DNA of 41,948 bases from an uncultured Solibacteraceae bacterium. GTDB taxonomy: Bacteria > Acidobacteriota > Vicinamibacteria > Vicinamibacterales > SCN-69-37. The notes under the pieces were generated by a model. It made no database searches and had not been told where the DNA came from. It saw nothing but the letters and a program-made list of their open reading frames with translations. The position numbers and the translations under genes were made by a program. The stretch is taken from assembly GCA_964548865.1 (NCBI GenBank), contig CAZJTG010000004.1:1-41948 (forward strand), written 5' to 3'. How positions within the stretch are numbered: the stretch's first letter is position 1; each line of letters starts with the position of its first letter. Positions 1,675 to 40,976 of the stretch are shown one piece after another.

Positions 1675-1699
1675 TTGTCAAGGCCATGGGTCTTGACAA
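1675..1699. promoter_or_regulatory. candidate operator: 8-bp inverted repeat TTGTCAAG-N9-CTTGACAA overlapping the -35 box
   Basis: TTGTCAAG (1675-1682) and CTTGACAA (1692-1699) are exact reverse complements. The 9-nt spacer contains CCATGG. The right arm contains the TTGACA -35 hexamer. Confidence 0.35.
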
Positions 1700-1720
1700 C
1701 GCAAACGCGTCTGCTATACT
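1693..1720 (+). promoter_or_regulatory. sigma70-type promoter (-35 TTGACA, -10 TATACT)
   Basis: TTGACA at 1693-1698 and TATACT at 1715-1720 are separated by 16 nt. Both hexamers are at or near consensus. They lie in the only lower-GC intergenic stretch, just downstream of the purA terminator and upstream of the riboswitch-like leader. Confidence 0.55.
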
Positions 1721-1734
1721 GCGAGTGTCGCGAG

Positions 1735-1822
1735 TTGGAACGACAAACCGGCAAACCATCCGCGAGGGTGGGGCGCAAAGCGAAGGGCCTCGGGCGTCCG
1801 AGGTCGCCTGGCTACCGAAACC
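1735..1822 (+). promoter_or_regulatory. c-di-GMP-I (GEMM-I) riboswitch aptamer in the 5' leader
   Basis: The RNA reads CCGGCAAACC-AUCC-GCGA-GGGUGG-GGCGCAAAGCG-AAGGGCCUCGG-GCGU-CCGAGGUCGCCUGGCUACCG. All conserved GEMM-I blocks are present:
- GCAAACC
- a first hairpin, CCAUCC/GGGUGG, capped by a GNRA tetraloop (GCGA)
- CGCAAAGC
- a second 8-bp hairpin, GGCCUCGG/CCGAGGUC
- a 3' UACCG

The order and spacing parallel the V. cholerae Vc2 aptamer as I recall it. The element starts about 10-15 nt after the predicted transcription start. Confidence 0.75.
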
Positions 1823-38189: not shown

Positions 38190-40258
38190 ATCTGACCGGC
38201 AAATCGTTCCCGAAAGTCTTCACGTGGGTCTTCATGGCGCTGGCCGCGGTCGCTTACTTCCCCAGCCTGATCGGGGTGTTCCAGGAGGGGCTGTTCTCTC
38301 CGATCGAGAGCGTGTGGCACGACGCGACCTTCCGCATCCGGGAGAAATCCCTGCCCGCCGGCGATCCCCGCCTGATTCTCGCCGCGGTCGACGACGACAC
38401 CGTCCGCAAGCTCGGCTTCCCGCTCCCGCGCAAGGTGTACGCGGACGCGCTCAACAGGCTGCGCGAGTACGGCGTCAAGACGGTGGTCTTCGACGTCCTT
38501 TTCCTCGAGCCGCGCGAGGGCGACGCCGAGCTGGCGGCGGCGACCAAGAGGCACGGACGCGTCATCCATCTCTACGTGTCGATCCATCACGAAGGAGCCG
38601 AGAAGGCGGACCTGCAGCTCGCCGTCAAGCCGCTGCGGGACGCGTCCCAGTACCTCGGCACCCCGAGCATCGCCGAGCACCTCGACGGCGACGGCCACAT
38701 CCGGACGTTCAACCTGTTCAAGCCGGATTCCGAGGATCCCACGCGCAAAGGCCAGCCCGCGGCCTCCTTGGCCGCGGCCGCGGTGGCGAGCTTCACGGGC
38801 AAGTCGATCGAGGACGTCCTCAAGGAACACCCCGCCGACCGCATCCCGATCCCGGTCATCAATTTCCGCCGGCCCGTCGATTGGAAGCGCCACGAGGCCG
38901 CGGGGACCGCGGACATCTACACCTCGCCGTACCGGACGATCTCCATCATGGACATCGTCGCCGGCAAGCTGACGAAGGAGCAGAAGGAGGCGCTGAAGGG
39001 ATCGATGGTGATGGTCGGCTCCATCAGCACCGGCTACTTCGATCATTATCCCGGTCCCTTCATCGCGCACACCCCGGGCCCCGAGTTCCACCTCACGATC
39101 ATCGACAACGTCCTCAACGGGGACCCGTTGCAGGCGACCGACCGCCTGTTCGTGCTGCTCATGGTCATGCTCGCCGCTTGGATCCCGTATCACCTGCTCA
39201 AGCGGCTCTCGCCGGCCTGGTCGGCGGTCGCCACGGCGGCGATTCTCGCGGGCCTGTACTACGGCTCGCTCAAGCTCATGGCCGGCGGCACGATGATCTA
39301 CCCCGTCGCCCCGGGCCTGACGCTGTTCATGGCGTTCGTCGTGCTCACGGTCCACCGCGTGCTCACCGAGGGCGCGGAGAAGCAGCTGATCAAGGCCAAG
39401 TTCGGCCAGTTCGTCGCGCCGGAGATCGTCGAGCAGCTCGCGAACGATCCCGAGACGGCCAAGCTCGGCGCGCAGAAGCGCGAGATGACGGTGTTCTTCC
39501 TCGACATCGCCCACTTCACGACCATCTCCGAGAAGCTGGACGCCGAGGCGCTGATCGCCTTCCTGAACAAGTACCTGTCGGCGTTGTCGACGGTCATCCT
39601 CGACCGGCGCGGCACGATCGACAAGTACATCGGCGACTGCGTCATGGCGTTCTGGAACGCGCCGCTCGAGAACAAGAACCACGCGGCCGACGCGATCTCC
39701 TCCGCGCTGGAGTGCCAGCGCGCGATCGCGAAGCTCAACGAGAACCTCGACAAGAACCTGCCGATGACGCCGGCGGTGCGCATCGGCATCAACACCGGTG
39801 CGATGGCCGTGGGCTTCACCGGAACCGAGAAGAAGCTGGCCTACACGGTCCTCGGCGACGAGGTCAACCTGGCCTCGCGCCTGGAGGGCGCCAACAAGTT
39901 CTTCGGCTCGAAGATCATCGTCAGCGGCGCGACGTTCGAGGCGGCGGGCGGCGGCTTCGAAGCCCGCTACTTGGGCCAGGCCCGCGTGGTCGGCAAGGAG
40001 ACTCCGGTCCCGGTGTACGAGCCGCTGGCCGAGAAGGGCCGGCTCGACGCCGCCTGGTCCAAGGCCCTGCCGGTCTGGGAGCGCGGCATCAAGGCATTCT
40101 ACGCTCGTAAATACGAGGAGGCCCTGCCCGCGTTCGAGGAATTCGCGAAGCTGATGCCGGGCGACGGGCCGGGAGAGCTGTACCTCGGCCAGTCGCGCGA
40201 CTACGCGGCCCTGCCGCCCGAAGACTGGGACCAGGTCTTCAACCTCACGGCGAAATAA
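38186..40258 (+). CDS. CHASE2 sensor-domain class III adenylate/guanylate cyclase (probably an adenylate cyclase)
   Basis: The start overlaps the upstream stop (ATGA). The order of elements is:
- an N-terminal TM segment
- a CHASE2-like periplasmic region (ILAAVDDDTVRKLGFPLPRKVYADALNRLREYGVKTVVFDVLFLEP)
- three TM segments
- a class III cyclase catalytic core
- a TPR-like C-terminal helix pair

The catalytic core reads MTVFFLDIAHFTTISE...GTIDKYIGDCVMAFWNAP...VRIGINTGAMAVG...YTVLGDEVNLASRLEG. Confidence 0.9.
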   Translation: MNLTGKSFPKVFTWVFMALAAVAYFPSLIGVFQEGLFSPIESVWHDATFRIREKSLPAGDPRLILAAVDDDTVRKLGFPLPRKVYADALNRLREYGVKTVVFDVLFLEPREGDAELAAATKRHGRVIHLYVSIHHEGAEKADLQLAVKPLRDASQYLGTPSIAEHLDGDGHIRTFNLFKPDSEDPTRKGQPAASLAAAAVASFTGKSIEDVLKEHPADRIPIPVINFRRPVDWKRHEAAGTADIYTSPYRTISIMDIVAGKLTKEQKEALKGSMVMVGSISTGYFDHYPGPFIAHTPGPEFHLTIIDNVLNGDPLQATDRLFVLLMVMLAAWIPYHLLKRLSPAWSAVATAAILAGLYYGSLKLMAGGTMIYPVAPGLTLFMAFVVLTVHRVLTEGAEKQLIKAKFGQFVAPEIVEQLANDPETAKLGAQKREMTVFFLDIAHFTTISEKLDAEALIAFLNKYLSALSTVILDRRGTIDKYIGDCVMAFWNAPLENKNHAADAISSALECQRAIAKLNENLDKNLPMTPAVRIGINTGAMAVGFTGTEKKLAYTVLGDEVNLASRLEGANKFFGSKIIVSGATFEAAGGGFEARYLGQARVVGKETPVPVYEPLAEKGRLDAAWSKALPVWERGIKAFYARKYEEALPAFEEFAKLMPGDGPGELYLGQSRDYAALPPEDWDQVFNLTAK

Positions 40259-40259
40259 C

Positions 40260-40976
40260 ATGCATATCTTCTGGCGGCTGATGTTCGGGCATCTCCTCTG
40301 CGACTTCACGCTGCAGACGAATTTCATCAACCGCTGGAAGCGCGAGAGCCAGTGGGGCCTGCTCGCGCACTGCGCCATGCACCCGGCCGCCTACCTGATC
40401 CTGTGCTGGCCCTTTCTCGGCGACTACTGGATCGAGAACGCGCTGTTCCGCTTGGACGGCTGGTCCTGCATCGCGATCATCTTCGTCACGCATTACCTCG
40501 AGGACTGGTGGCGGGTGTTCACGATCTTCAAATACGGCATGCCCGACAACACCCTCTTCTTCGCCTGGGACCAGGTCATCCATTACGCGGTGATCTTTTC
40601 GGTCGCCCCGCTGGCGGCCGTCTCCACCGCGGCCACGAGCTACTTTCCCGAGAAGTGGCCCGTGCTCGGCTGTCTGTTCGTGCTGGCCACCCACGCGTGC
40701 ACGGTGCTGATCTACTTCCTCGAGAAGGACCTCCACGGAGCCGACTATCCCGGAGACGACGAGAAGCACCTCGCCATGGCCGAGCGGCTGGTCCTCGCGC
40801 TGTGCTTCCTGTTCCCGGGCGCGCTCGGCGCGGGCCTGCTCGCCGCGGGCTGGCTCGGAGTGATGTTCTTCCTGCGCCGCCGCCGTCTGTTCGACCTGAC
40901 CGCTTTCACGTTCTACACCGGCGCCACCGTCGCCGTCCTGTGCGGCCTCGCGGGCCGCGCGGTCTACTACTCCTAA
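40260..40976 (+). CDS. DUF3307-like polytopic membrane protein
   Basis: The ATG lies 1 nt after the cyclase stop. The N-terminus, FGHLLCDFTLQTNFINRWK, resembles the conserved HxxxDFxLQ start of DUF3307. There are several hydrophobic segments and an HYLEDWW motif. The coding call is good; the family name comes from memory only. Confidence 0.65.
   Translation: MHIFWRLMFGHLLCDFTLQTNFINRWKRESQWGLLAHCAMHPAAYLILCWPFLGDYWIENALFRLDGWSCIAIIFVTHYLEDWWRVFTIFKYGMPDNTLFFAWDQVIHYAVIFSVAPLAAVSTAATSYFPEKWPVLGCLFVLATHACTVLIYFLEKDLHGADYPGDDEKHLAMAERLVLALCFLFPGALGAGLLAAGWLGVMFFLRRRRLFDLTAFTFYTGATVAVLCGLAGRAVYYS

Follow-up and report, generated by a model that had tools for sequence, protein, structure and literature searches.

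Adhesins of the LapA type are giant repetitive surface proteins whose display is controlled by cyclic di-GMP (c-di-GMP) after translation, via LapD and LapG, and whose export proceeds through a type I secretion system (T1SS). Adhesin genes are also found under c-di-GMP riboswitches, as in the Vc1-gbpA pair of Vibrio cholerae and the Bc2-cap pair of Bacillus thuringiensis. The CD2831 adhesin gene of Clostridioides difficile is under a c-di-GMP riboswitch as well (PMC6447587, PMC11477304), in this case one of class II, with sortase anchoring of the product. Here we describe a related arrangement on a far larger scale, in a window of 41,948 nucleotides (nt; positions 1 to 41,948 of contig CAZJTG010000004.1, assembly GCA_964548865.1; 69% G+C) that is deposited under an uncultured Solibacteraceae bacterium; for every protein tested, the closest relatives were found in Elusimicrobiota metagenome-assembled genomes. 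The window carries a c-di-GMP-I riboswitch leader followed by genes for a small membrane-anchored protein (hereinafter g1), a secreted HEAT-repeat protein (HEAT1) and a surface protein of 11,273 amino acids (aa; the giant), and further downstream by genes for a second secreted HEAT-repeat protein (HEAT2), a CHASE2 adenylate cyclase, a DUF3307 membrane protein and a thiolase, all on the forward strand. We consider it likely that these genes make up two adjacent transcription units, namely a riboswitch-gated unit A (1693-37151) and a leaderless unit B (37170 to beyond 41948).

As in the riboswitch-controlled adhesin genes, the aptamer of unit A is located in the 5' leader of a surface-protein message and is combined with a terminator-type platform. 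Unlike those genes, unit A comprises three genes and a 34-kb open reading frame (ORF), comes from a diderm candidate-phylum bacterium, and has a terminator that holds the Shine-Dalgarno (SD) sequence and the start codon of its first gene; the aptamer belongs to class I, in contrast to that of CD2831. In common with the LapA-type systems, c-di-GMP is predicted from the sequence to decide the display of a giant repetitive surface protein, but control would be exerted at the mRNA level, and the window lacks T1SS genes. Giant proteins of more than 10,000 aa that include HEAT_2 repeats, along with the c-di-GMP components PilZ and GGDEF, have been described in Omnitrophota (bioRxiv 10.1101/2023.11.21.568195). 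The window shares with them the protein size, the origin from uncultured bacteria and the association with HEAT_2 and c-di-GMP; however, in Omnitrophota the giants themselves contain the HEAT repeats and are preceded by type II/IV-like secretion loci, whereas the HEAT proteins of the window are separate, small and secreted, and the link to c-di-GMP is a riboswitch. A c-di-GMP riboswitch before an adhesin gene is known already; the 34-kb scale of the gene, the conserved g1 and HEAT1 companions, the coding-overlapping terminator and the phylum are new.

Unit A starts downstream of purA (220-1506) and its terminator (1518-1558; a 17-bp stem followed by a T-run) with a sigma-70-type promoter, TTGACA-16-TATACT (1693-1720; an 11/12 match), both hexamers of which are invariant in six related leaders. 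The aptamer, including P1, spans positions 1734-1824. The Rfam model RF01051 matches positions 1740-1819 with 60 bits (gathering score 35, E = 2e-9) and the homologous leaders with 52-59 bits; with our own covariance model, built from 5/6 homologous leaders and run over all fetched loci (designated L001 and so on), the window aptamer scores 111 bits, and 29 strong Elusimicrobiota aptamers were recovered. Across these 29 aptamers, 93.9% of the cells in helices P1, P2 and P3 are paired and 20 of the 27 pairs show compensatory changes, values that were matched by none of 500 shuffles. In our reading of the alignment, a G is aligned to RF01051 consensus position 11, before the GC of P1; we take this position to be G20 of Vc2, the ligand-specifying site at which G marks a c-di-GMP sensor and A a cyclic GMP-AMP (cGAMP) sensor, and the G fits c-di-GMP and not cGAMP. 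Judging by score, covariation and the G at this position, the leader aptamer is a c-di-GMP-I (GEMM-I) riboswitch, for which ligand binding can be predicted. The initial annotation, made from the letters alone, had described a purA terminator followed by a promoter and a c-di-GMP riboswitch leader, and all three are present.

Two nucleotides 3' of the aptamer, a small linker hairpin begins (CAUGCUG-loop-UGGCGUG, 1826-1844), which is predicted, on weak evidence, in five leaders with variable loops. It is followed by a 23-pair hairpin (1858-1916) and the tract CUAUUUUU, which together (1858-1924) are assigned, by folding and covariation, as the riboswitch expression platform, of the terminator type. 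The transcript cut at the U-tract folds to -38.7 kcal/mol, and in six loci 94.9% of the hairpin cells are paired, with four pairs showing compensatory changes. The initial annotation had found no convincing terminator between the genes, a statement that does not hold for this hairpin and U-tract, which separate the aptamer from the main part of g1. The SD sequence of g1, GAGGGG (1888-1893), lies inside the hairpin loop, the g1 start (TTG 1902 or GTG 1905) lies inside the 3' arm, and the U-tract provides the first codons of the g1 signal peptide, so that the terminator doubles as ribosome-binding region and first g1 codons; it is unusual for coding sequence and RNA structure to be superimposed in this way. 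The stretch 1888-1924, with the SD sequence, the start and the first codons (L-V-G-P-G-L-F-L), is nucleotide-invariant in five loci; L001 is an exception in that its g1 start is 3' of the U-tract. Promoter, aptamer and terminator are almost invariant in six loci in which the giant heads are only 46-52% identical, which argues for constraint at the RNA level.

With respect to the direction of the switch, the aptamer and the terminator do not overlap; an overlap pointing to an ON switch was looked for in the leader and none was found. Such an architecture typifies OFF switches, and an OFF switch is therefore slightly favoured, albeit on thin evidence. Before the 3' arm of the terminator exists, energy models pair the G-rich strand of the aptamer with the 5' arm of the terminator (in three related sequences); neither computation nor inspection by eye detected independent covariation for the candidate antiterminator pairings. 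A 34-kb gene under a riboswitch would be an extreme case, in which a huge biosynthetic investment is decided within the 200 nt with which the mRNA begins.

The first gene of unit A, g1 (1902-2387), encodes a protein of 161 aa that has a signal peptide at the N-terminus, a transmembrane helix at the C-terminus and no match in Pfam or NCBIfam; it is followed by HEAT1 (2495-3337, 280 aa) and the giant gene (3330-37151). The order riboswitch, g1, HEAT1, giant head was found in each of the five related loci whose upstream sequence is long enough (L001, L002, L003, L088 and L089), in four of which purA is directly upstream, and the g1 orthologues of these five loci, always in the same position, are 42-68% identical. 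The short locus L090 shows HEAT1 followed by the giant head, which brings the count of loci with HEAT1 directly upstream of the giant to six of six. HEAT1 overlaps the giant gene by 8 nt in L002 as well; in L001 and L003 the two genes are separated by 61-64 nt. Given that the order is the same in every sufficiently long locus, these observations indicate that the riboswitch, g1, HEAT1 and the giant are a real inherited unit, and the leader recognized in the initial annotation heads this unit throughout. For HEAT1, the only part matched by HEAT_2 (PF13646) above the gathering score is the C-terminal third (40 bits). The 5' coding part of HEAT1 contains two direct copies of TACGCGCGCGCGCG (2538-2553 and 2623-2638) in different reading frames, and in L002 both copies are changed in parallel to GCGCGCACGCG; this parallel change hints at nucleotide-level constraint or gene conversion in HEAT1.

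The giant protein consists of a Sec signal peptide (MRKISWRRLLAAAALAAVTGL...ADA, read directly from the translation), a beta-rich head of about 700 aa, repeats of about 125 aa (divergent repeats of this length occupy residues 1835-7800) and a conserved C-terminal module of 800 aa. Apart from weak immunoglobulin (Ig)-like matches, Pfam and NCBIfam yield almost nothing for 11,000 of its residues. Homologues of the head (the first 700 residues) were found in three proteins and three metagenome loci, and the head profile had no match among the sequences of the PDB; the AlphaFold2 model of residues 1-700 (from a 4-sequence alignment) reached a predicted local distance difference test score (pLDDT) of only 37. 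The C-terminal module, in contrast, matched 147 stretches in a scan of species-representative genomes, so that the giant represents one of the major families of surface proteins in a phylum about which little is known, and is not a one-genome curiosity. An even longer homologue, of 14,015 aa, is encoded in a Joint Genome Institute (JGI) metagenome contig (L093:1-8784), where it is followed by HEAT2, the cyclase and DUF3307, with a further HEAT_2 protein after yajQ.

The last 240 aa of the giant were modelled as two beta-sandwiches (pLDDT 78), an FN3-like one and a FlgD_ig one; the Pfam FlgD_ig match (41 bits) is the only one above threshold at this end. Weak matches were obtained to the C-terminal ends of PorU and of a protease dependent on the secretion system of type IX (T9SS) (E ~1e-4), and to the PorU structure 6za2 (E = 0.044); a Foldseek search with the 240-aa model returned generic tandem FN3 pairs only, which cannot separate a T9SS sorting domain from other beta-sandwiches. 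The giant resembles T9SS cargo such as SprB and the gingipains (PMC5562754, PMC12618676) in the combination of a Sec signal peptide with a C-terminal beta-sandwich of about 90 aa, and SprB is likewise a giant repetitive surface adhesin. Unlike T9SS cargo, however, its C-terminus matches FlgD_ig and not the sorting-domain models, and neither PorV nor any other T9SS gene is found within the window. Because the dedicated sorting-domain models did not match, we did not assign the giant as T9SS cargo. The original remark that the window holds no T9SS component stands for the machinery genes but not for the giant itself, the FlgD_ig end of which resembles a T9SS sorting domain.

Unit B begins in the 54-nt gap between the giant and HEAT2. 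This gap contains an 8-bp GC hairpin without a U-tract, read from the sequence 3' of the giant stop codon (37155-37179), and a promoter, TTGAAG-18-TAGAAT, the -10 box of which ends exactly 6 nt before the HEAT2 GTG (37170-37208 with the start codon). A promoter scan and comparison with relatives revealed the same geometry in at least 22 of 30 relatives, with differing spacer sequences: a -35 box, 17-19 nt, a TAGAAT-like box, mostly 6-7 nt, and GTG or ATG. This geometry is, as far as can be read from sequence, the signature of a leaderless mRNA. The promoter is followed by HEAT2 (37206-38189; 327 aa, with a Pro/Lys-rich tail; HEAT_2, PF13646, in four matched stretches, 177 bits, above the gathering score), the CHASE2 cyclase (38186-40258), which HEAT2 overlaps by ATGA, DUF3307 (40260-40976) and, starting 12 nt after DUF3307, a partial thiolase gene that runs off the end of the window (40989-41948). 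The ORF coordinates, the domain calls (HEAT_2 in both HEAT proteins, CHASE2 with Guanylate_cyc, and DUF3307) and the exact junctions of the initial annotation (the 8-nt overlap 3330-3337, ATGA at 38186-38189 and the 1-nt gap 40258/40260) were all reproduced; its gene string, in contrast, does not end at 40976, given that no terminator separates DUF3307 from the thiolase gene.

The promoter also occurs in other gene contexts. In L021 and L025, the giant is followed directly by the promoter and the cyclase, HEAT2 being absent, and in L092 (9990-10003) TAGAAT-6 nt-GTG stands directly before the cyclase. The latter locus, with the order dprA-topA-xerC-(315 aa)-purA-(one minus-strand gene)-cyclase-DUF3307-thiolase-hutH-hutU-yajQ, contains no giant, no HEAT gene and no riboswitch, and flanks of the same type surround the giant in L001/L002 and L091. 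Since the same flanks occur with and without the giant, the giant cassette lies within a conserved purA-to-cyclase backbone. The thiolase gene follows DUF3307 in nearly all loci and is thus equally syntenic, which implies that the gene order reflects an inherited backbone. In several relatives (L008:11580-11650, also L011, L012, L016 and L024), the giant stop and the HEAT2 promoter are separated by perfect palindromes, the arms of which measure about 20-31 bp and which often end in GGTGTCAGGC...GCCTGACACC; these look like repetitive extragenic palindromic (REP) or miniature inverted-repeat transposable (MITE) elements, or else like strong terminators. One and the same genome assembly is the source of L001, which carries the giant head, and of L024, in which HEAT2 and the cyclase come after the giant C-terminus.

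The initial annotation had read the locus as a single operon of six genes and about 39 kb, expressed from one promoter through the riboswitch, in which the HEAT proteins could chaperone the giant and c-di-GMP input would be relayed into cyclic AMP (cAMP) output. All six genes are indeed co-directional with tight junctions, no canonical terminator is present 3' of the giant in the window, and the order giant, HEAT2, cyclase, DUF3307 is kept in about 35 genomes. On the other side stand the conserved leaderless promoter directly before HEAT2 (37170-37199), which is at odds with a single promoter, the large palindromes 3' of the giant in relatives, the existence of the cyclase operon, behind this type of promoter, in the giant-free L092, the equally syntenic thiolase, into which the downstream genes continue, and the association of the giant with other downstream neighbours in 25 or more species. 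Conserved order within a shallow clade does not show functional coupling, and the cyclase and the thiolase are syntenic as backbone genes. We therefore regard the single operon as very unlikely: HEAT2, the cyclase and DUF3307 have a conserved promoter of their own, the synteny of this downstream half with the giant breaks down in L092, in the 25 species with other neighbours and, for HEAT2, in L021 and L025, and since the locus is probably not one operon and the cyclase lies outside unit A, a coupling of c-di-GMP input to cAMP output is not supported. As for the HEAT proteins, profile searches place them in no well-characterised pathway; neither HEAT1 nor HEAT2 reaches the cut-off of any named NCBIfam family. 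Several observations nonetheless weigh against the division into two units as we describe it, or against its parts. HEAT2, the cyclase and DUF3307 lie 3' of the giant in about 35 of 80 species-level loci, and every locus in which HEAT2 was found immediately before the cyclase has the giant as well; the hairpin 3' of the giant in the window is U-less, and read-through into HEAT2 is possible; the antiterminator proposed for the leader rests on energy predictions for three closely related sequences; the T9SS sorting-domain models (TIGR04183/PF18962) have no match to the giant C-terminus; and a conserved stretch before HEAT1 could be another promoter.

This last point concerns unit A, in which about 60 nt upstream of the HEAT1 ATG (2430-2494; GGAAACAATTCCG ... 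GAATAACCGCACTATAGAGGGTC) show nucleotide-level conservation across five loci, whereas the rest of the g1-HEAT1 spacer varies in length (107 to 379 nt). Were this stretch a second, non-sigma-70 promoter from which HEAT1 and the giant are mainly expressed, the riboswitch would gate g1 only. However, the promoter scan detected no sigma-70 match in the spacer, sigma-28, sigma-54 and extracytoplasmic function (ECF) sigma factor readings do not fit either, a terminator 3' of g1 was not found either, the conserved stretch contains the SD sequence and may act in translation or RNA stability instead, and the three genes g1, HEAT1 and giant are invariably found as a set downstream of the riboswitch, all of which makes this alternative improbable. 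A different possibility is that HEAT2, although transcribed with the cyclase, travels with the giant cassette as a functional partner of the giant, for example as a tether in the periplasm, which the Pro/Lys-rich tail of HEAT2 would span. Its restriction to giant-bearing loci, its absence from L092 and a weak similarity between HEAT1 and HEAT2 (E = 9e-5) speak for such a role; yet L021 and L025 have the giant without HEAT2, a single giant-free locus was sampled, and the ATGA coupling of HEAT2 is to the cyclase, the CHASE2 sensor of which is also periplasmic, so that HEAT2 could equally be a co-sensor. We regard the tether as possible but doubtful, and retain the division into a riboswitch-gated unit A and a leaderless unit B.

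Under this division, transcription of unit A would proceed from the sigma-70 promoter through the c-di-GMP-I aptamer and the linker hairpin to the intrinsic terminator, where read-through of RNA polymerase into g1, HEAT1 and the giant gene would depend on whether c-di-GMP is bound; translation of the giant is probably coupled to that of HEAT1. For the export route, we infer Sec-dependent translocation from the predicted signal peptides of all three proteins. The roles that we infer for the two accessories follow their predicted locations, with g1 kept in the inner membrane and HEAT1 in the periplasm. The giant is predicted to be a fibrillar surface protein with a unique head, beta repeats of about 125 aa, and C-terminal FN3 and FlgD-Ig-like domains, the latter probably serving for outer-membrane targeting or anchoring. 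Unit B would be expressed as a leaderless operon for HEAT2, the CHASE2 adenylate cyclase, DUF3307 and the thiolase.

For the catalytic domain of the cyclase (Pfam CHASE2 and Guanylate_cyc), the best solved relative is CyaB from Pseudomonas aeruginosa (3r5g, E = 3e-34). Both metal-binding Asp residues, the Lys (DKYIGD), the Thr (YTVLGD) and the transition-state Asn and Arg are conserved with respect to 3r5g, in the aligned motifs FFLDI, DKYIGD and YTVLGDEVNLASRLE. By its catalytic and specificity residues, the protein is classed as a class IIIb adenylate cyclase, for which cAMP output is a sound prediction; the cAMP output suggested in the initial annotation is accordingly credible for the enzyme itself, as a CyaB-type producer with the Lys/Thr specificity pair. 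The window cyclase thus combines the class III catalytic domain and Lys/Thr pair of CyaB with the CHASE2 periplasmic sensor of the Sinorhizobium meliloti CHASE2 cyclases (PMC13001267) but, unlike either, shares its operon with genes for a HEAT protein and for DUF3307. The DUF3307 gene follows the cyclase within about 35 nt, usually less than 10 nt, in nearly every locus. In the closest relatives, those in which the giant C-terminus is 75% or more identical, identity amounts to 83-92% for DUF3307, 60-77% for the cyclase and 43-62% for HEAT2, which makes DUF3307 the most conserved protein of the region. This conservation and the fixed place after the cyclase suggest that DUF3307 is an obligate partner of the cyclase; a literature search for DUF3307 with CHASE2 cyclases found nothing. 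Three long minus-strand ORFs over the giant gene (3171-22367, 22635-27203 and 27315-37205; 6,398, 1,522 and 3,296 codons) were rejected as genes; most probably they do not code and merely mirror a coding frame that is rich in GC and poor in stops.

In 25 more distant Elusimicrobiota species, the homologous giants have a different neighbourhood. A second c-di-GMP-I aptamer is located 3' of the giant stop, within 50-350 nt in most cases, and is followed by a gene for a secreted protein of about 530 aa with a PorV/PorQ NCBIfam match (113 bits, cut-off 90) and a C-terminal TPR domain (for example, L054:12347-20251; also L031, L041-L044, L052, L056, L059-L063, L073, L075, L077, L081 and others). 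Where the contig is long enough, further genes come next, for a FliG_M/FliG_C-TPR protein with a membrane anchor, a coiled-coil protein of 772 aa, MotA and MotB; they are conserved in 15-20 of 20 loci, and at least the FliG-like gene is present in 24 loci. This PorV-MotAB neighbourhood and the HEAT2-cyclase neighbourhood were never found together. Tandem pairs of c-di-GMP-I aptamers occur in L087 (13718-13822 and 14008-14111) and L086 (19221-19314 and 19457-19531), the pair in L087 preceding a 129-aa protein with hardly more than a signal peptide and, at its C-terminus, the FlgD-Ig-like domain also seen in the giant; PorV-TPR comes next. A further link to c-di-GMP is seen in L005 (2881-3756, minus strand), where a gene for a PAS-GGDEF diguanylate cyclase lies convergently right after the giant stop.

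In the T9SS, PorV acts as the shuttle, binding cargo by its C-terminal sorting domain (PMC5562754), and the literature limits this system to Bacteroidota and the Fibrobacteres-Chlorobi-Bacteroidetes (FCB) group (PMC11611037, PMC12398890). In the 25 relatives, a PorV/PorQ-family outer-membrane gene adjoins the homologous giant, a point of resemblance to T9SS cargo and its PorV shuttle, but the partner genes encode MotA/MotB and a FliG-like protein, unlike the GldL/GldM of the T9SS. This association suggests a surface machine gated by c-di-GMP. One may go further and propose that the giant is the mobile adhesin or cargo of a hitherto undescribed, c-di-GMP-gated envelope machine of Elusimicrobiota made up of a protein with a C-terminal sorting domain, a PorV-like outer-membrane partner, a membrane-anchored FliG-like protein and a MotA/MotB stator, that is, a non-FCB analogue of SprB/T9SS/GldLM gliding, with g1 and HEAT1 as dedicated inner-membrane and periplasmic accessories and the riboswitch as a motility-type OFF switch; we put this forward as a speculation that is unlikely to hold. 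No paper linking Elusimicrobia with c-di-GMP riboswitches or with the T9SS was found in the literature, and the PorV/MotAB lead in the relatives is a more novel thread than the operon with two second messengers that was originally claimed for this locus.

Non-flagellated Elusimicrobiota carry motAB and fliG genes of enigmatic role (preprint 10.1101/2022.07.08.499144). If the envelope-machine interpretation is true, it would explain these orphan motAB and fliG genes, and the location of the giant beside riboswitch-gated genes for PorV-like, FliG-like and MotA/MotB proteins provides a testable context for the motor genes.

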